A stretch of 55,451 bases of DNA from positions 1 through 55,451 of the IMG/VR virus record IMGVR_UViG_3300045988_024504; one strand, written 5' to 3'. This document shows, in pieces, positions 2,821 to 42,771 of this stretch; within the stretch, counting starts at the first letter, position 1; each line of letters opens with the position of its first letter. Source of the DNA: a virus. The notes under the pieces were generated by a model. The model was given only the letters and a program-made list of their open reading frames with translations, did not search any database and was not told where the DNA came from. The translations under genes were made by a program, and so were the position numbers.

Positions 2821-3026
2821 TATAGGGGGACGTGCTCCACTTTATGTACACAATAGGCCTGTTATAAATATGGCTTTGGGTTGTCATTTTGTCCCCCATA
2901 GGCTCGTAAATGGCAGATTTTCAAGGATGTAATTAACGAGTTTGCGTGAAATTTTCGTTCATCAGAGCGTGACTTGTCAATTCGTCCCCTATTGGTGTGA
3001 TTGCACTCCATTTTCTGTACACGATA
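2821..3026. repeat. Origin-flanking repeats: two inverted iteron copies plus three GTCCCC(C)TAT(A/T)GG motifs
   Basis: Inverted iterons lie at 2834..2851 and 3004..3026. TTGTCAnnnnGTCCCC(C)TAt(a/t)GG occurs at 2881..2902 and 2975..2995, with an inverted core at 2821..2831. Confidence 0.7.
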
Positions 3027-3201
3027 GAACCGTCAGGTAGATTATAGGGCTTGATGGACGTTTCTTATTCAGCAAAAGAAGTTGTCGTTTTCCACAATCT
3101 TCCCATTAAAGAGAAGAAATTGTTGAAAATGTATCGTCGTCACTATTTGATGATGATTATTTATCTCTTGTTTATTTCTTGTTTATATATATAGTAAGAA
3201 C

Positions 3202-3307
3202 GTGTACAAAAAGTGGAGCATTGTGTACATAAAGTGGAGCATTGTGTACATAAAGTGGAGTGTATCGTGTACAAAAAGTGGAGTATCGTGTACAGAATGT
3301 GGAAGTC
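3202..3307 (+). repeat. Five tandem 20-23-bp iterons (GTGTACAnAAAGTGGAG...), oriV of the Rep_3-type replicon
   Basis: Units start at 3202, 3223, 3244, 3267 and 3288. An A/T-rich stretch at 3155..3200 lies immediately upstream. Partial copies at 3326 and 3345 overlap the rep promoter. Confidence 0.85.
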
Positions 3308-3338
3308 GATTGTTGAAAAATAATTGTGTACAAAATCA

Positions 3339-3367
3339 TTGACGTGTACACGATACAATGATATAAT
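3339..3367 (+). promoter_or_regulatory. rep promoter TTGACG-17-TATAAT overlapping partial iterons
   Basis: The -35 is at 3339..3344 and the -10 at 3362..3367. GTGTACAC lies in the spacer, which suggests autoregulation. Confidence 0.6.
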
Positions 3368-3392: not shown

Positions 3393-4487
3393 ATGCCAGA
3401 ATTGACAGGGAACAACCTTGTCGAAAAGAGCAAGGCATTGGTTTGGGCGAAGTTTACGGACTACACAGCAGGCGAGCTTCGGCTGCTTGAGGTCTATCTG
3501 AGCCGTATCAATCCGAGAGACCCCGAAAGCTCTAACGTGTCGTTTACGCTGGCTGAATATTGCAAGCTGCTGGATTTGAAGCTAAATTCAAAGAACTTGA
3601 AGTCGCAGGTTAAGCACTTTTTGGGCAACGTGGTTTCAGTACCGCTGAATGCAGATGGAACAGAATATGTGATGTATCCGCTGTTCACAAAGGCAGAGGT
3701 CAAGTTCAATCGAGAATCCTTGTCCTATGACGTTTCAATCAACTGTAATCCTGACTTGCGGCCTGTGTTTTTCGACATTGCAAGAAGCGGCTACGTCAAA
3801 TACCGTCTGCGCTATACGATTGGGATGAAGCAGCAAGCATCTATTCTGATGTACAGCATGATTCGGGATTGGATGAATCGCTCTCTAACATCGAACAAGA
3901 TTGGTTTGAAGCAGCTGCGTGACCACTTGGGGGCAAACGATGCAAGTTATGACGACTTCCGGGCTTTACGCCGCAGAGTTCTTGAACCAGCAGTGGAAGA
4001 GATCAGCAATGTTTCAGACATTGTCGTTGACTTTGAGAAGATTTGCACAGGGCGAAAGGTCGTAGCGGTCGAGTTTCGATTCGGGTACAAATCCAAGCAG
4101 CCCGTCATAGATGCCGATTCTAGCGAGGTTGATTGTGAAGCGGATAATTCCAAGCCGGAAATCAAAAAAGCCACAAGAAAGCCCCGCACAAGCGGATACG
4201 AAGGGTACGACTGGTCTGTGTGCGATGCTCTATCCGTTCAAGAGTGCATCGCGGTTGCAAAGGTTGTCGAGGTAAAGATGATGGAAGAACACCCATCTAT
4301 CAAGCTGCCGAAGCGGAGAGATGCGGTCTATGATATCGTAAAGGCTGCGTGTGCGGATATTCTTTCAATCAACCGTGACCCTTGGCCTGACCATCCGAAG
4401 CGGTATCTGATTGGTAGCTTGAAGAAAGACGGCGCGATTGAAGAGTATCTTCCGGCATTTTATGAGATTGACGCACTGCAAAATTAA
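3393..4487 (+). CDS. Rep_3-like iteron-binding plasmid replication initiator, 364 aa
   Basis: The N-terminus NNLVEKSKALVWAKFTDYTAGELRLLEVYLSRI resembles the Rep_3 signature. GAGGTGA precedes the ATG. The gene is adjacent to the iteron array. Confidence 0.75.
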   Translation: MPELTGNNLVEKSKALVWAKFTDYTAGELRLLEVYLSRINPRDPESSNVSFTLAEYCKLLDLKLNSKNLKSQVKHFLGNVVSVPLNADGTEYVMYPLFTKAEVKFNRESLSYDVSINCNPDLRPVFFDIARSGYVKYRLRYTIGMKQQASILMYSMIRDWMNRSLTSNKIGLKQLRDHLGANDASYDDFRALRRRVLEPAVEEISNVSDIVVDFEKICTGRKVVAVEFRFGYKSKQPVIDADSSEVDCEADNSKPEIKKATRKPRTSGYEGYDWSVCDALSVQECIAVAKVVEVKMMEEHPSIKLPKRRDAVYDIVKAACADILSINRDPWPDHPKRYLIGSLKKDGAIEEYLPAFYEIDALQN

Positions 4488-4520: not shown

Positions 4521-5285
4521 ATGGCAAAAATCATAGCTGTCGCTAATCAGAAGGGCGGCACAGGAAAGACTACCACAAGCACCTGTCTGGCCGGTGCGTT
4601 GCAGTTGCTTGGCAAGAAAGTCCTGCTGGTGGACTGCGATGCCCAGTGTAATGCAACGGACACCTACGGTGCACAGACAGAGAACGTATGCACCCTGTTT
4701 GACGTGATGACCCGGCAAGGCACGGTCGAAGAAGGAATCCAGCACTGCGAAGCTGGTGACATTCTGCCGTCTGACAGCGCATTGAAGGACATTGACGAGC
4801 AGCTTGTCCGGGACATGGGCAAGAATTTCCGACTGCGAGAGGCCCTTGAGAGCGTGTCTAGTCAGTATGATTACATTGTGCTGGACACTCCCCCGCAGCT
4901 CGGTCTTGCGCTTGTGAACGCGCTGATCGCCGCCAACAGCATCATCGTGCCCATCACAGCAGACCGATACGCACTGGCTGGTCTGAGCCAGCTTTCTCAG
5001 ACTATCGGCGATGTTCGCAGATACTTCAATCCGACTTTGAAGATTGAAGGTCTGCTTCTGAACCAGTACAAAAGCAGGGAGAACCTGTCCAAAGAGGTCG
5101 TGGAGCAGCTTCCTGTGATTGCACAGAACATGGGCACAACCCTGCTGGATGTGAAGATTAGACCGTCTATGGGCGTTCGTAAGGCGCAGGCAGAACGGCA
5201 CAGCCTGTTTAGCGGTGACACGGCGAAGAGCACCAGTGCAGAGGACTTTAAGGCGTTGGCGCAGATGATTGCGGAGGGAAAATAA
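4521..5285 (+). CDS. parA: ParA/Soj-type partition ATPase, 254 aa
   Basis: It has the deviant Walker A KGGTGKTT and VLLVDCDAQ. The small ParA lacks an N-terminal HTH (type Ib-like). Confidence 0.93.
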   Translation: MAKIIAVANQKGGTGKTTTSTCLAGALQLLGKKVLLVDCDAQCNATDTYGAQTENVCTLFDVMTRQGTVEEGIQHCEAGDILPSDSALKDIDEQLVRDMGKNFRLREALESVSSQYDYIVLDTPPQLGLALVNALIAANSIIVPITADRYALAGLSQLSQTIGDVRRYFNPTLKIEGLLLNQYKSRENLSKEVVEQLPVIAQNMGTTLLDVKIRPSMGVRKAQAERHSLFSGDTAKSTSAEDFKALAQMIAEGK

Positions 5286-5287
5286 AA

Positions 5288-5500
5288 ATGGCTAAAAAGA
5301 AAACTGAAAATGTTGTGCGTCCAATTGCACATTGGGAACAAGCAAATTACAGCTATATGGACTTAGACAACGGCGGCGTACGAGTAAAAGTGGACGGTAT
5401 TGGTTGCTCAAACTGCATGGCGAAGTTTAGGAAAAATTTTATGTGGGCAATCAATTTCTGCCCTAATTGTGGAGCGCGAATGGGGGCTGTAGAAGAATGA
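5288..5500 (+). CDS. Zn-ribbon protein, 70 aa
   Basis: CSNC...CPNC pairs are present. The ORF starts 3 nt after the parA stop and overlaps the next start (ATGA). Confidence 0.6.
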   Translation: MAKKKTENVVRPIAHWEQANYSYMDLDNGGVRVKVDGIGCSNCMAKFRKNFMWAINFCPNCGARMGAVEE

Positions 5501-6069
5501 AATCAACCAGCAAAAAATCCTCAGGCTTGCTTGGCGGGTTTGATTTTCAGCCTATTTTTTCGGAGCAGACATTAAGCCGAAGCGTGCCAAAGGAAGAAGA
5601 AGTAAGCCAAGCAAAGCCGAACGAAGCCGAGCAAGCACAGATTAAGCCTAGTGAAGCCACAGACAGCCATGCACAGCCTGATGAAGAACAGTTAATCAGT
5701 ATTAAGCCAAAGCAAGCCAAAGACAGCGAAACACAGCCAAATAATGCCGTGGTAAGCGAAAGTAAGCCGAAGAAGCTGAAACAGGCGAGGGAAGTTCAAC
5801 GTCTTATCGAACAGGGCGATGTTCCCGGCGCACTTGCCGAAGCTGGCTTGACAAGGAAAAAAATCCCGATGCCGGAATCGCATCAGGGCGTTGCAAGCGG
5901 CGATGGCAAGCGTTCAAAGCGCATTACCATCCTTATGAGCGAGGAAGAGCGCAAGTACATCAACCGTGAAGCTAGACGGCATGGGATGACGATTGGACAG
6001 TTCGTGTACGCTCTGGCGGTTGCAGCGGCAGAGGGAAAGATTGAGTTGGAGGATTTCTTGGAGGATTGA
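5497..6069 (+). CDS. Ribbon-helix-helix DNA-binding protein, candidate ParG/omega-type centromere binder (MobC-like RHH also possible)
   Basis: The C-terminus is KRITILMSEEERKYINREARRHGMTIGQFVYALAV. The N-terminal half is a 10-aa repeat. The gene is coupled to the parA operon. Confidence 0.6.
   Translation: MKSTSKKSSGLLGGFDFQPIFSEQTLSRSVPKEEEVSQAKPNEAEQAQIKPSEATDSHAQPDEEQLISIKPKQAKDSETQPNNAVVSESKPKKLKQAREVQRLIEQGDVPGALAEAGLTRKKIPMPESHQGVASGDGKRSKRITILMSEEERKYINREARRHGMTIGQFVYALAVAAAEGKIELEDFLED
5571..5770 (+). repeat. About 20 tandem 10-bp units with core (A/C)AGCC, candidate centromere array inside a CDS
   Basis: AAGCC starts at 5574, 5604, 5614, 5624, 5644, 5654, 5704, 5714 and 5764. CAGCC starts at 5664, 5674 and 5734. 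All are in one 10-bp register. Confidence 0.7.
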
Positions 6070-6122: not shown

Positions 6123-6151
6123 TTGACTTTTAAGCACACAAATAGTATACT
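6123..6151 (+). promoter_or_regulatory. Promoter TTGACT-17-TATACT
   Basis: The -35 is at 6123..6128 and the -10 at 6146..6151, upstream of the small RHH ORF. A 12-bp imperfect inverted repeat lies at 6068..6094. Confidence 0.5.
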
Positions 6152-6181
6152 TAATGTGCGCTCAAAAGTGGAGGTGAACGC

Positions 6182-6489: not shown

Positions 6490-7353
6490 ATGAACATTCC
6501 AGCAACGAAAGAAGAGATTCTCGAAAATTTCAAGCAAAATAGCAACGGCCGTCCGCTCAACAAGGATGATTATGAGATTGCGGAAGCGTTATCTCGAATC
6601 ACTTACAAGGCGTATGAGGTCGGAATGGAAGATGCTAAACAGTTGTATATGGAGGATATGATGGATAACAAGAGATGTAACGCACTTCACGTTTTTAAGA
6701 ACAAGACCTTTGGTCAGCTCCGCACGATTGAAGAAGATGGTAAAATTCTTTTCTGTGCTTCTGACGTGGCAAAGGCACTTGGCTATACCAATGCACCGGA
6801 TGCAGTAAAACGCCATTGTCGGTATACTGTAAAACGCAGTACACCTCACCCGCAAGCAAAAGATAAGATGATTGAAGTAACTTTCATCCCAGAGGGCGAT
6901 GTTTACCGTCTTATCACCCACAGCAAGTTGCCCGGCGCAGAGAAGTTCGAGAGTTGGGTTTTCGATGATGTTCTTCCGTCTCTCCGCAAGAATGGCTATT
7001 ACAGCCTTGCCCCGCAGGAGAACAAGCCCGACACGCAGGACGATGCAATCTTGCAAGTGCTGATGAAGAACACGGAAGTCCTACAAGCCATCGTTCAGCA
7101 AAACCAGCAGATTATGATTGCTCTTACCAACCTGTCTGTCAACGATGCAAAGCACACGATGGAGATTCAACCTTACACTTCCCATCAGGGGCAGAAGGGT
7201 GACGGCAAACGTAGCAAGCGAATCACAATTCTTATGAGCGACAGCGAGCGGACGTTCGTTACGAGAGAAGCACGCAAGCACGGATTCACGGCAGGGGAGT
7301 ACATCTACAACCTGTCCGTTGCAGCATCGAAAGACCAGATTGACTTAGGATAA
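6490..7353 (+). CDS. Bro-N (antirepressor-type) domain protein with C-terminal RHH paralogous to 5497..6069
   Basis: The Bro-N signature is FGQLRTIEEDGKILFCASDVAKALGY...VYRLITHSKLPGAEKFESWVFDDVLPSLRKNGYY. The C-terminus is KRITILMSDSERTFVTREARKHGFTAGEYI. The start is uncertain (the track gives 6415). Confidence 0.75.
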   Translation: MNIPATKEEILENFKQNSNGRPLNKDDYEIAEALSRITYKAYEVGMEDAKQLYMEDMMDNKRCNALHVFKNKTFGQLRTIEEDGKILFCASDVAKALGYTNAPDAVKRHCRYTVKRSTPHPQAKDKMIEVTFIPEGDVYRLITHSKLPGAEKFESWVFDDVLPSLRKNGYYSLAPQENKPDTQDDAILQVLMKNTEVLQAIVQQNQQIMIALTNLSVNDAKHTMEIQPYTSHQGQKGDGKRSKRITILMSDSERTFVTREARKHGFTAGEYIYNLSVAASKDQIDLG

Positions 7354-7444
7354 CTCCGAAAAAAGCTAGAGGATAGAACAGGCAGATATCGCCCATCGTT
7401 AGGAGATGTGGGAATTGTCGCCCCACCTAGCTTTTTCAATAGTA

Positions 7445-33569: not shown

Positions 33570-34802
33570 TTATTCTCCAGCTTTGAAATTGTAAATCGGC
33601 TTAATGTGTTTTACAATATCAACTGTTGGGGAGATTGCGTTGATAATTTCCTGCGCTGGCTTATATGCCATCGGGCATTCATCCAATGTGGATTCATCGG
33701 CTGACGTAGTATAAATTCCGTTCATTTGCTTTTGGTATTCCTCAACGCTGAATGCTTTTTTAGCCGCTGTTCTGCTATATAATCTGCCAGCACCATGCGG
33801 AGCAGAGAAATTCCAATCAGGATTGCCCTTGCCAACACAGATAAGGCTTCCGTCTCTCATATTAAGAGGAATAATCAGCTTCTCACCATCTCTAGCAGAT
33901 ACAGAGCCTTTTCGGATAATATCATCCGATTCATCAATATAGTTATGAACGGTTTCAAAGAAGGACGCATAGGTCAGCATAGAATTGATTCCAACACCAT
34001 CTAAAATAGTGTGCATAATTCTCGCTCTGTTCATCCTCGCAAAAGCCTGACAAATTCGCATATCATTAAGGTAAGAATCACGTTCTTCGCCTTCAAGATA
34101 GCAAAGCTCATTCGGAATATCAGGGAACTGAACATCCAATTCTTTGATTTTTTGCGAGATTTCCTGTTCACGGCCTTGCTCTTTCAGTTCTGCAATCAGA
34201 CGTTCCGTAGCTTCTTTTCTTTTGTTCTTTCCTTTAATATTTGAGATAGCTACGTTTTGATGATACTCTGCGACCTGCTTTCCAAGATTTCGGCTTCCAG
34301 TATGGATAACAAGGTACTGGTTTTTTTCTTTATCTTCGTCCAGCTCGATAAAATGATTGCCGCCGCCCAAAGTACCCATGCTGCGAAGAATCCAGTCAAT
34401 ATTATGTAGGCTATCTTTGCATTCAAGCTGGCTAAGGAAAGAATCCGACATTTTCTGCGATTCGTGAACATTCATTCCAGCCGGGACACGTTCTCTGATT
34501 ACTTTGTCTAACTTTTTTGGGTCGATGTGTTCAATTCCAAGTTCAGCGACAAGCATTCCGCAACCAATGTCCACGCCTACAATATTCGGAATGATTTTCT
34601 TGCCCAAGTTTGCCGTAAACCCAATTACGCACCCGGAACCAGCATGAACGTCTGGCATAATGCGAATTTTGCAGCCATCAACAAAGCTCTGATTGCAAAG
34701 CGTCAAAATCTGCTCAGACGCTTTGTCTTCAATATTGTCCGTGAACACCTTTGCGGACGCATATTTTCCATCAATCGTTTTCAATGTATTCTCCTTTCTC
34801 AT
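33570..34802 (-). CDS. rtcB: RtcB RNA 3'-phosphate/5'-OH ligase
   Basis: RIMPDVHAGSGCVIGF...GVDIGCGM...GGGNHFIE...HTGSRNLG...PHGAGR are the RtcB metal and GMP-histidine motifs. An alternative TTG start is at 34784. Confidence 0.9.
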   Translation of the reverse strand: MRKENTLKTIDGKYASAKVFTDNIEDKASEQILTLCNQSFVDGCKIRIMPDVHAGSGCVIGFTANLGKKIIPNIVGVDIGCGMLVAELGIEHIDPKKLDKVIRERVPAGMNVHESQKMSDSFLSQLECKDSLHNIDWILRSMGTLGGGNHFIELDEDKEKNQYLVIHTGSRNLGKQVAEYHQNVAISNIKGKNKRKEATERLIAELKEQGREQEISQKIKELDVQFPDIPNELCYLEGEERDSYLNDMRICQAFARMNRARIMHTILDGVGINSMLTYASFFETVHNYIDESDDIIRKGSVSARDGEKLIIPLNMRDGSLICVGKGNPDWNFSAPHGAGRLYSRTAAKKAFSVEEYQKQMNGIYTTSADESTLDECPMAYKPAQEIINAISPTVDIVKHIKPIYNFKAGE

Positions 34803-40389: not shown

Positions 40390-41094
40390 TTACAAGCGAT
40401 TGAACTCTGGTTCGCTATACTGCTGCTTTTCCTGTTCCTTGTCAATCCACATATCAGCAAAGGCCTTCCAGTTTGTTATAGGCTTTCCGTTCTTGGTCAT
40501 CCAACCTGTTCCCTCATAGTAGTTCATAAACCTGCTGGCAAGCCTGTTCTCACATCCAGCATCCAAAAAATACTCGCTCACATCCTCGAAGTCCGGCGTG
40601 ATGGCGTTCCCATCGGGCGGGTCGCCAGCTTTCTTAATAACTTTTTTTCTTTTCTTTTCTTCTATATTAAGGAGGTGAACGATTGTTCCCCTCACAGGTG
40701 AAGCATCGTTCCCCTCAAAGGTGAATGATTGTTCACCTCGCTTTTCGCTATTTGACGATTCTTTTGGCACTTTGACGTATATCTTATCGGGCTTGTTCTT
40801 CCCTTCACGTTTGCGCTCGATCAACCCGGCTTCTTCCAGCTCTTTCAGAGACTTCTTGACCCATCGCTCCGTGAATCCAGTATCGGTAGCAAGGTCTTTG
40901 ATGGGATACACGATGTATACTCGTCCTAGTTGGTCAGCAAACTTTCCGCTTTTGCTTGCCCTCTGTGACGACCTTGCACGATTGAACAGGTAAACGTAGA
41001 CAATTTTCTCTGTTGGACTAACGTCAATAGTCGAGAGGAATCGAGGGTAGACCATGTACCCATTGACCTTTGTGTCGGCTGTCATGTATTCCAT
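40390..41094 (-). CDS. RepA_N-like replication initiator
   Basis: YMVYPRFLSTIDVSPTEKIVYVYLFNRARSS...GRVYIVYPIKDLATDTGFTERWVKKSLKELEEAGLIERKREGKNKPDKIYV resembles the RepA_N winged-helix N-terminal domain. AGGAGGAG precedes the ATG at 41094. Confidence 0.7.
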   Translation of the reverse strand: MEYMTADTKVNGYMVYPRFLSTIDVSPTEKIVYVYLFNRARSSQRASKSGKFADQLGRVYIVYPIKDLATDTGFTERWVKKSLKELEEAGLIERKREGKNKPDKIYVKVPKESSNSEKRGEQSFTFEGNDASPVRGTIVHLLNIEEKKRKKVIKKAGDPPDGNAITPDFEDVSEYFLDAGCENRLASRFMNYYEGTGWMTKNGKPITNWKAFADMWIDKEQEKQQYSEPEFNRL

Positions 41095-41547: not shown

Positions 41548-42771
41548 TTACATCCACACGCATTCTTTGAACTGCTGTGTTTCCATCTGGAACGTGATGT
41601 CCAATGACCCCACGTTGCCCTCTTTGTTTTTCTCAAGCGCAAAGTGATAGTGCTGCTCCGGCCGCTTTTTCGTGGTCACGTTCTGCGCTAGCAGGATGAT
41701 TGCATCTGCGTCCTGCTCGATCTGTCCGCTTTCTCGAAGGTCTGCGGCGGTCGGTGGGATGCCCGCTCTTGCCGTTTCTCGATTGAGCTGTGCAAGTGCT
41801 ACCACCAGCGTTCCTGTGGACTGTGCAAACTCATGCAGTTCCATGCTGATTTCCGTGACAGCGCTGTATCGATCTTTCGCTCTGGCCTGATGGATAAGCT
41901 GCAAATAGTCGATGAACACTACTTTGGCCTGCATTCTGATGGATTGCGTTCTAATCCACCCAACACTCTTACCAGCGGCAGAGCGGACGAACAGAGGATA
42001 TTTCTTGATGGCTGCCAGCCGGTCAAGCTCGTCAATGCTGACGGTCTTGTTTTTGACCGTATGTAGCGGTACGCCTAACTGGTTTGCGATAATACGAGCA
42101 TAAAGCGTGTCTGGGTCTGTTTCTAGGCTGAAATACGCCACCTTGCGCCCGTTCTTGGCTATTTCACAGGCAAGTTGCAGAGACAGAGCGGTCTTACCAG
42201 CAGACGGTCTGCCGCCGATCACAACGAAGTTGCCCGGCACAAGATGCAAGTTGTTGTCCAGCACTTTAAGTCCTGTGCTGATATACTCCGGCTTATCATC
42301 CAACTTGCGGATGTAATTGTCTATGCCATCGCACATCGGGATGAAATCGCTTCTCTCGTTGTGTAAATTGATAGCTTCGCCTAGCTGCTCATAAATGCCC
42401 GTCAGGTCTGCGTATCTGGTCGAGCCATCAACGATTTTGAACGCAAGTTCTCTGGCTCTGGACAATGCTGCCTGTTCCTTGACGATTCCAGCCCATCCAA
42501 GCATCATGTCGTGGGTGACGTTGCGGATGAACTCTGCGCCGAAGGCATCAAGGCATTCGCTCATTGCTTTCTTGCAGTTATCGTACCGCCCCATGACTTC
42601 TACCGGGTTCCACTTGTCGTTGTGTTCCCAATAGCCACGAATGGCAGCGAACGTATCATGCAGTTCAGGGCAGAAATCGTCGATTTTGAGGTCTTGCAAC
42701 ACATCGGCATACTCAGAAAACGTAAGTACTGCCCCAAGCAGGATGTATTGGGTCTGATTTTCAATATTCAC
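41548..42771 (-). CDS. dnaB: Replicative DNA helicase DnaB
   Basis: It has the Walker A GGRPSAGKT. IDYLQL and the C-terminal RecA-like motifs are present. It is 407 aa. Confidence 0.9.
   Translation of the reverse strand: MNIENQTQYILLGAVLTFSEYADVLQDLKIDDFCPELHDTFAAIRGYWEHNDKWNPVEVMGRYDNCKKAMSECLDAFGAEFIRNVTHDMMLGWAGIVKEQAALSRARELAFKIVDGSTRYADLTGIYEQLGEAINLHNERSDFIPMCDGIDNYIRKLDDKPEYISTGLKVLDNNLHLVPGNFVVIGGRPSAGKTALSLQLACEIAKNGRKVAYFSLETDPDTLYARIIANQLGVPLHTVKNKTVSIDELDRLAAIKKYPLFVRSAAGKSVGWIRTQSIRMQAKVVFIDYLQLIHQARAKDRYSAVTEISMELHEFAQSTGTLVVALAQLNRETARAGIPPTAADLRESGQIEQDADAIILLAQNVTTKKRPEQHYHFALEKNKEGNVGSLDITFQMETQQFKECVWM

Follow-up and report, generated by a model that had tools for sequence, protein, structure and literature searches.

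The window, by which we mean the whole 55,451-nucleotide stretch of IMG/VR record IMGVR_UViG_3300045988_024504, is a Rep3 phage-plasmid of the human gut. It encodes a terminase, a portal protein, a major head protein and a tape measure protein, as a tailed-phage genome, together with a plasmid-type maintenance block that comprises genes for a Rep3 initiator, a ParA ATPase, an adaptor and ribbon-helix-helix (RHH) proteins (Table 1). Here we analyse an array of 10-bp direct repeats that is written into the coding sequence of the adaptor and that is a candidate centromere for this ParA. The ATPase matched the Pfam families AAA_31 (1.4e-54), CbiA (4.5e-24), MipZ and ParA; we found no match to a helix-turn-helix (HTH) domain in it, and its 254 residues lie within the ~200-260 aa of type Ib partition ATPases, which have no N-terminal HTH.

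We built an AlphaFold2 model of the adaptor from a 25-sequence alignment. Residues 21-88, exactly the part encoded by the array, were modelled without secondary structure and with a predicted local distance difference test (pLDDT) score below 50, and this linker is predicted to be disordered. Helices were modelled at residues 90-115 and, after the KRITILMS motif, at residues 149-161 and 166-178; the strand region itself was left unstructured. A Pfam scan of the adaptor returned no ParB-type domain. At the other end of the protein, residues M1, K2, S5, G10 and L11 of the basic N-terminal peptide were invariant across all alleles of the locus; the peptide is a putative ParA-contacting or ParA-activating tail.

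Table 1. Features of the maintenance block and of the repeat array (positions in the window)
Feature	Position	Strand	Evidence or remark
Rep iterons, 21-23-bp units, CGTGTACAAAAAGTGGAGCAT	3180-3335		
Rep3 initiator (rep)	3393-4487		
parA, Walker-type partition ATPase, 254 aa, no N-terminal HTH	4521..5285	+	Pfam
70-aa zinc-ribbon open reading frame in variable cassette slot, in the gap between parA and the adaptor gene	5288..5500	+	
Adaptor (ParB/ParG-like) gene, 190 aa	5497..6069	+	N-terminal peptide, predicted disordered linker, short helical region, RHH
Conserved basic N-terminal peptide MKSTSKKSSGLLGGFDFQPI	5497..5556	+	MKxTSKKxSGLL across alleles
Block 1, most conserved part of the array, six units	5566..5630		kept in 170-aa and 160-aa variants
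Array of 10-bp direct repeats, consensus nnnAAGCCnA	5571..5770	.	codes for the predicted disordered linker
Array middle, near-neutral at all codon positions	5631..5700		60-bp and 90-bp deletions fall here
Block 2, the other conserved set of units	5701..5770		units from ~5721 on kept in length variants
RHH-like DNA-binding domain, strand KRITILMS then two helices	5917..6030	+	Pfam NikA-like 3.6e-5, AlphaFold2, Foldseek
CopG-type RHH gene, 57 aa	6182-6355		
Bro-N/anti-repressor domain fused to RHH (paralogue)	6490..7353	+	Pfam Bro-N 1.4e-21 and NikA-like; PHROG anti-repressor

The repeats of the array are direct and non-palindromic. AAGCC begins nine times within it, at 5574, 5604, 5614, 5624, 5644, 5654, 5704, 5714 and 5764, and CAGCC three times, at 5664, 5674 and 5734. 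These starts had been listed in an earlier note on this DNA; all were correct, and every one is congruent to 4 modulo 10. No [AC]AGCC lies out of register within 5571-5770 (the nearest other copy, at 5548, is outside the interval), where the note had said so of AAGCC; the 10-aa peptides that it quoted are present in the adaptor translation, and the core is translated in all three codon phases, as it had stated. Its count of twenty units stood in part: 12 units have an exact core, three carry one mismatch (CAGCG, ATGCC and AAGCG), and the other five have at least two mismatches or a 1-bp shift. On the plus strand, the adaptor gene's frame is the only one without a stop across the array.

We then compared the array with the rest of the window. 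The motif [AC]AGCC occurs 191 times on this strand of 55,451 bases, which corresponds to 0.69 copies expected per 200 bp, and elsewhere, on either strand, no 200-bp stretch holds more than four copies in one register. At lag 10, no other 200 bp of the window are as strongly autocorrelated as those from 5571 (0.526, where the mean is 0.254; z = 7.3). Comparable periodicity was seen only at the Rep iterons, near 3131-3330 and at lag 21, and these 21-23-bp iterons are unrelated to the AAGCC units. Tandem Repeats Finder called only a fragment of the array (5704-5741, period 10), because the units are degenerate.

To follow how the array varies, we scored the parsimony changes of each alignment column over a neighbour-joining tree of 77 unique sequences of parA plus adaptor. 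Third codon positions changed 7.25 times per site in the RHH domain, 5.6 times in the first 24 codons of the gene and 3.07 times in the array; in the RHH domain, second positions did not change at all. First and second positions were freer in the array than in the rest of the gene, except for the first positions of the first 24 codons. When third-position changes were summed in sliding 15-codon windows along parA and the adaptor gene, the 25 lowest sums all fell within the array, and the minimum, at 5566-5610, was six changes where the median is 90. Variation dipped again at ~5692-5725, with 14-20 changes per 10 codons. Between the two dips, in the central part of the array, the three codon positions changed about equally.

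In each of the codon phases, variability in the array depended on where a base falls in the 10-bp unit: unit positions 4-8 and 10 were conserved, and position 9 was hypervariable. A linear model with codon position and unit position as terms was significant for period 10 (F = 4.05, p = 9e-5) and not significant for periods 7, 8, 9, 11, 13 and 14, and a permutation stratified by codon position gave p = 1e-4 for period 10. When the period-10 F was slid along both genes, it peaked on the array (F = 4.15) and reached at most 1.44 in parA. Furthermore, the third base of identical codons was 3-9 times less variable inside the cores than elsewhere, with 0.75 against 3.4-4.2 changes for AAG, 0.8 against 7.3-7.7 for AGC, and 1.0 against 5.3 for GAC. 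Purifying selection acts on the DNA of the array with a 10-bp period.

We also re-drew the codons of the array from local usage while keeping the peptide. This synonymous resampling lowered the periodicity: the values observed in the window at lag 10 and lag 20 lay z = 5.9 and z = 6.4 above the resampled mean. Codon choice reinforces the 10-bp repeat beyond what the peptide needs. Together with the conservation at period 10 that is independent of codon position, this result strongly supports the claim that the primary repeat is a DNA 10-mer kept in frame. The same claim had left it to the homologues to tell a conserved DNA register from a conserved peptide; in these, the DNA core and its register were kept and the peptide drifted, the opposite of the outcome that would have refuted the claim, a peptide retained with scrambled codons. 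An ordinary tandem-peptide or low-complexity linker would have a period set by the peptide, a multiple of 3, and unconstrained synonymous sites, which differs from what we observed, namely a period of 10 bp, z = 5.9-7.0 on resampling, and the lowest third-position variation of the module. What we observed is a cis-acting array of direct repeats that is selected as DNA, as expected of a type Ib system.

Length variants of the window's type of adaptor occur, with 180, 170 and 160 residues. The 170-aa and 160-aa forms have lost 60 and 90 bp, respectively, from the middle of the array (L174 and L173), with the losses reaching ~5722. Both deletions are multiples of 30 bp, so that the reading frame and the 10-bp register are preserved together, and both forms retain the first six units and the last few.

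Relatives of the adaptor were found in 819 protein clusters, in 511 IMG/VR stretches and in two unannotated faecal phage records. A search of IMG/VR for P0132 found nothing, and DNA was taken from contigs encoding P0132. Megablast gave no match among plasmids and only two unannotated faecal contigs among phages, and a scan of GTDB genomes with ParA returned only ParAs of at most 45% identity, mostly chromosomal. For the comparison of loci we used 80 IMG/VR loci. parA and the adaptor gene were both present in 80 of 80, at ~90-95% DNA identity, and so was the array. The rep alleles diverged (72-85% across the 80 loci), the DNA downstream of the adaptor gene was common to only 8-20 of them, and no conserved intergenic DNA was found beside the parA-adaptor module. 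The Rep iterons and the 10-bp array are the only repeat arrays near the module, and the 10-bp array is the only one that travels with it.

Cassettes are exchanged at the junction of the two genes. The adaptor gene had been described as lying directly after parA; in the window this is not the case, as the zinc-ribbon open reading frame (ORF) intervenes. The slot that it occupies (5288-5500, and the same slot in L001-L082) is a hotspot that holds unrelated small ORFs, among them zinc-ribbon, DUF551 and other types. Among relatives, between -1 and 727 bp separate the parA stop from the start of the adaptor gene; the slot is empty in 9 of 81, and the DNA of the window's own cassette was found in only ~6 of 80.

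We next turn to alleles of this locus that have diverged. Among 1.84 billion cluster representatives searched, only 21 clusters were related; their full-length members all begin with the MKxTSKKxSGLL peptide, continue with a linker of low complexity, and carry an RHH whose strand differs. All divergent alleles keep the Rep3-ParA-adaptor arrangement. Their ParAs remain close to that of the window (96% identity in L163, 90% in L171, 81% in L168 and L169), and their adaptors are only 31-46% identical to it. In L163 the N-terminal peptide is the sole conserved part of the adaptor (86% DNA identity over the first ~57 bp), with the remainder ~40% identical.

In each divergent allele, except for a weak signal in L170, the linker DNA is itself periodic. 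Where the window allele combines a 10-bp nnnAAGCCnA unit with the RHH strand KRITILMS, six sequences (L168, L169 and L175-L178) have 10-bp units of the form nACAGCGnAn, with the core ACAGC[GC], and the strand PRITIIMK (PRVTVIMK in L176). L171 has 10-bp units of AGWGGWAGTC, with the core GTCAG, and the strand TRMAIAMN; L163-L167 have ~19 units of 9 bp, CAGAWTnnn, and the strand SRVSVPMS; and L170, whose ParA is 49% identical, has the strand RRMCVAMP. In the ACAGC family the CAGC cores fill all three codon phases in one register. Synonymous resampling at lag 10 gave z = 4.0 to 7.0 across L168, L169 and L171 (z = 4-4.5 for the first two, and 7.0/6.8 at lags 10/20 for L171). Non-triplet periodicity of about one helical turn therefore recurs in the 10-bp alleles, with a different core and a different RHH in each.

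Two further observations were made on these alleles. The array of the ACAGC family consists of two blocks separated by a ~45-bp spacer, and the register of one is offset from that of the other by 4-6 bp, or roughly half a turn of the helix. In addition, two phages with 9-bp arrays, L163 (3898-4218) and L164 (~3868-4188), also keep an intact "headless" gene of the window's type, which encodes 106 aa with three AAGCC-type units and the RHH, lacks the N-terminal ParA-type peptide, and is 85-89% identical to window positions 5718-6069. The headless gene may be a remnant of allele replacement; more speculatively, its product could block the centromere of a rival.

Because the array is the only one to travel with the module, and because each divergent allele has a phased array of its own, we read it as the centromere of a type Ib ParA system that lies inside the gene of its putative RHH binder, and we give this reading a probability of roughly 60%. 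It is consistent with all of the comparative evidence. Binding of the RHH domain to the AAGCC cores would be expected on this reading, as judged from sequence. We envisage that C-terminal RHH dimers of the adaptor would bind successive AAGCCnA cores, one per 10 bp, and would build a co-operative filament on one face of the helix, nucleating on units one to six (5566-5630) and on the final units. The basic N-terminal peptide could then reach ParA through the long, predicted disordered linker and stimulate its ATPase, and a ParA gradient on the nucleoid would separate the plasmid copies. In such a scheme the linker peptide would be tolerated and its DNA would be the selected object, open to frame-keeping changes only.

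With site and binder in one gene, the two would be inherited and exchanged as a single specificity cassette, which would explain an allelic series with RHH and array varying jointly and ParA and N-terminal peptide unchanged. A rationale for this linkage is plausible: where cassettes are exchanged on both sides, an intragenic site stays with its binder and diversifies with it as one incompatibility unit.

Several points weigh against the centromere reading. Since its middle units drift and can be lost, the array does not need the full 20. Block 1, at 5566-5630, is conserved even at spacer positions, and the unit AGGAAGAAGA (5591-5600), which is without an AAGCC core, had zero changes in the 77 sequences; such conservation exceeds what a model of repeated cores predicts, and block 1 may be a nucleation site or have a second function. 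Degenerate peptide patterns were used to collect the loci, and as one of them, IKPKQAKD, overlaps block 2, amino-acid conservation there may be inflated, though not synonymous conservation. The distant allele L170 shows only weak periodicity, and a 9-bp allele cannot separate a DNA period from a peptide period. The RHH assignment itself is sub-threshold: the Pfam NikA-like match to residues 138-174 scored 24.3 bits against a cut-off of 27, the best PDB matches in Foldseek were RHH proteins (CopG, NikA, AtaR, CdbA, MazE6 and Arc) with E values of at least 1.3, and a PDB sequence search with the adaptor family profile gave no match. Finally, going by sequence, the centromere may lie elsewhere on the 55-kb genome.

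The array could also be a binding site of RHH proteins that serves regulation, with segregation relying on a true centromere elsewhere or on another site. It might act as a transcriptional roadblock through which the adaptor gene and the genes downstream are autoregulated, or it might be the target of the Bro-N-RHH paralogue. Constraint on the DNA fits such a role equally well, and RHH partners of type Ib systems, ParG and omega among them, double as autorepressors. A possible second binder is at hand in the Bro-N-RHH protein, whose RHH strand KRITILMS is identical to that of the adaptor and whose gene lies 420 bp downstream, and the sequence flanking its RHH varies in step with the adaptor allele. 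However, this paralogue was present in only ~20 of the 80 loci, whereas the array was in all; a promoter scan found no promoter-like site in the array or just downstream of it; and the array always occurs with the form of the gene that has the N-terminal ParA-type peptide, beside parA. We consider a purely regulatory array unlikely. The two roles are not fully exclusive, since operator and centromere are usually the same DNA in type Ib systems, and a regulatory role may coexist with that of a centromere.

A relic of replication slippage of a 10-bp unit is less probable still, and we doubt it. In that case the linker would be a low-complexity spacer without a DNA function, in which multiples of three units survive because they keep the frame, and its periodicity would be decaying. 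Tandem repeats are common in disordered linkers, disorder is predicted for the region, the three codon positions are about equally variable in the array's middle, and 30-bp blocks have been lost with the gene kept. Slippage should not, however, reduce synonymous variation, which is at its lowest for the module within the array. Nor does it account for a conservation of period 10 that ignores codon phase, for a codon choice that reinforces the repeat, or for several divergent alleles that each kept their own array of ~10 bp (9 bp in one) in the same place.

It is very improbable that the constraint acts through RNA, as an mRNA structure or a motif bound by protein, or through an overlapping gene, namely the 57-aa antisense ORF at 5547-5720: synonymous constraint marks such elements too and the minus strand is open across the array, but conservation has a period of 10 and not the 3 of an overlapping ORF, on which ground the antisense ORF was rejected, the antisense frames are open merely because GGCTT repeats hold no stop codon, direct repeats without complementary partners form no helices, and scans of the array for Rfam families, promoters and terminators found none. 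Other candidates were likewise set aside. A true start further downstream, which would make the array intergenic, is contradicted by the N-terminal peptide conserved in all alleles and by the open frame in all relatives; the Rep iterons are unrelated in sequence, and variation among rep alleles is independent of that in the par module; and a translational effect at the 5' end is at odds with the normal synonymous variation of the first 24 codons.

The centromere reading can be widened to the lineage as a whole. There is, in our estimate, an even chance that this is an abundant lineage of gut phage-plasmids with portable partition-specificity cassettes, in which the centromere lies in the linker of the adaptor, the linker is mainly a DNA element, the RHH and the array form incompatibility alleles on a constant chassis of ParA and N-terminal peptide, and a headless rival RHH is a possible anti-partition weapon. 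If confirmed, the array would be a clear natural case of dual coding, with a protein-binding DNA array and a protein linker on the same bases and the DNA function dominant. It would also show a centromere and its binder locked together so that recombination cannot separate them in a highly mosaic phage region, and partition specificity, hence incompatibility, diversifying as one cassette. Non-triplet periodicity in the linker of a ParA partner would be a simple signature of centromeres that are hidden from searches of intergenic DNA. In metagenomes of the human gut the element is very common, and its maintenance mechanism therefore bears on the persistence of phage-plasmids in the gut.

Other features of the window are recorded here. 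The Rep3 origin has five direct 21-23-bp iterons, with inverted copies on either side (3005-3026, 3180-3335 and 3345-3357). One inverted copy overlaps the strong promoter-like site in front of rep (3339-3367), and Rep may therefore regulate its own gene. An imperfect palindrome with 25-nt arms (6126-6169) shares bases with a promoter-like site (6123-6151) immediately before the 57-aa CopG-type RHH gene and is probably the operator of that gene itself. In L171 (3276-4205), the flanks of the RHH in the Bro-N protein match the adaptor allele of L171 itself, so that the RHH domains of the adaptor and the Bro-N protein seem to co-evolve or to exchange sequence. Adjoining the 3' end of the Bro-N-RHH gene, we found a match to skipping-rope RNA (Rfam RF02924) at 7362-7434 on the plus strand, with 57.2 bits against a gathering score of 36.7 (E = 3.6e-12). 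A 23-bp tandem repeat of 2.9 copies (AGGTGAACGATTGTTCCCCTCAA) lies at 40673-40739, ~800 bp from the gene for a DnaB-like helicase (41548-42771), and may be a second, lytic-phase origin. Lastly, an RtcB-type tRNA-splicing ligase (33570-34802 on the minus strand; PHROG 1075, E = 8.6e-134) adjoins the terminase gene.

Among known systems, the type Ib centromere of pCXC100 consists of nine unspaced, non-palindromic and weakly conserved 9-bp direct repeats, on which one RHH ParB dimer binds per repeat, co-operatively (PMC3074162). The locus described here is similar in its Walker ParA without an HTH, in an adaptor with a predicted flexible N-terminal part and a C-terminal RHH-like domain, and in direct repeats of about one helical turn (10 bp, or 9 bp in the L163 allele). 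It differs in that the pCXC100 centromere is described as a separate region of nine units, whereas the 11-20 units here lie within the coding sequence of the adaptor and are translated in three phases. We detected no sequence similarity between the adaptor and pCXC100 ParB.

ParF/ParG/parH of TP228 and delta/omega/parS of pSM19035 are type Ib systems of a ParA-family ATPase, a small RHH adaptor and a repeat-array centromere (PMC3130281, PMC9499535). In these, the unstructured N-terminal tail of the adaptor activates the ATPase, and the N-terminal peptide here is its putative equivalent. Their sites are promoter/operator regions outside the genes, and their adaptors have ~70-76 aa, in contrast to the 190 aa here with a 68-residue linker that carries the array. 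The parH site is built of 4-bp boxes with AT spacers, and the omega sites are 7-bp heptads.

The parC sites of R1 and pSK41 had been proposed in the earlier note as parallels, and they serve as an analogy in that an RHH protein, ParR, sits on phased direct repeats, with units of 11 bp in R1 and 20 bp in pSK41. The locus is not a member of their class: these are actin-type systems with a ParM motor and with parC upstream of the genes, whereas the motor here is a Walker ParA. In R1, parC comprises two sets of five iterons bound by ParR (PMC2241845), which the split, two-block array of the ACAGC family recalls.

Nor does the locus belong with type Ia or chromosomal ParABS systems, in which ParB has an HTH and a ParB/Srx N-terminal domain and parS is a 16-bp inverted repeat: no ParB-type domain was found in the adaptor, and the repeats here are direct and non-palindromic. 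In B. subtilis, a parS lies inside spo0J. Similarly, the parS of SCP2 lies inside parT, the gene of its own binding protein (PMC12260392). The likeness is a centromere within the coding sequence of its binder, where binding in our case is inferred; the difference is that those sites are single 16-18-bp palindromes for HTH ParB-type proteins in structured coding regions, and the site here is a direct-repeat array for a putative RHH protein in a predicted disordered linker. In the literature we found no report of an RHH centromere array within the linker of an adaptor and read in three phases. A further parallel comes from pSK41, where the Rep boxes of the origin lie inside the dispensable, linker-coding central part of rep (PMC5703833). 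There, too, the repeated sites of a binder occupy the linker-coding centre of its own gene, though this RepA_N site is a replication origin with four Rep boxes, for another protein family, and has no 10-bp phased array. A centromere in the gene of its own adaptor (SCP2 parT) and binding sites in the linker-coding DNA of their binder (the pSK41 origin) are both already known.

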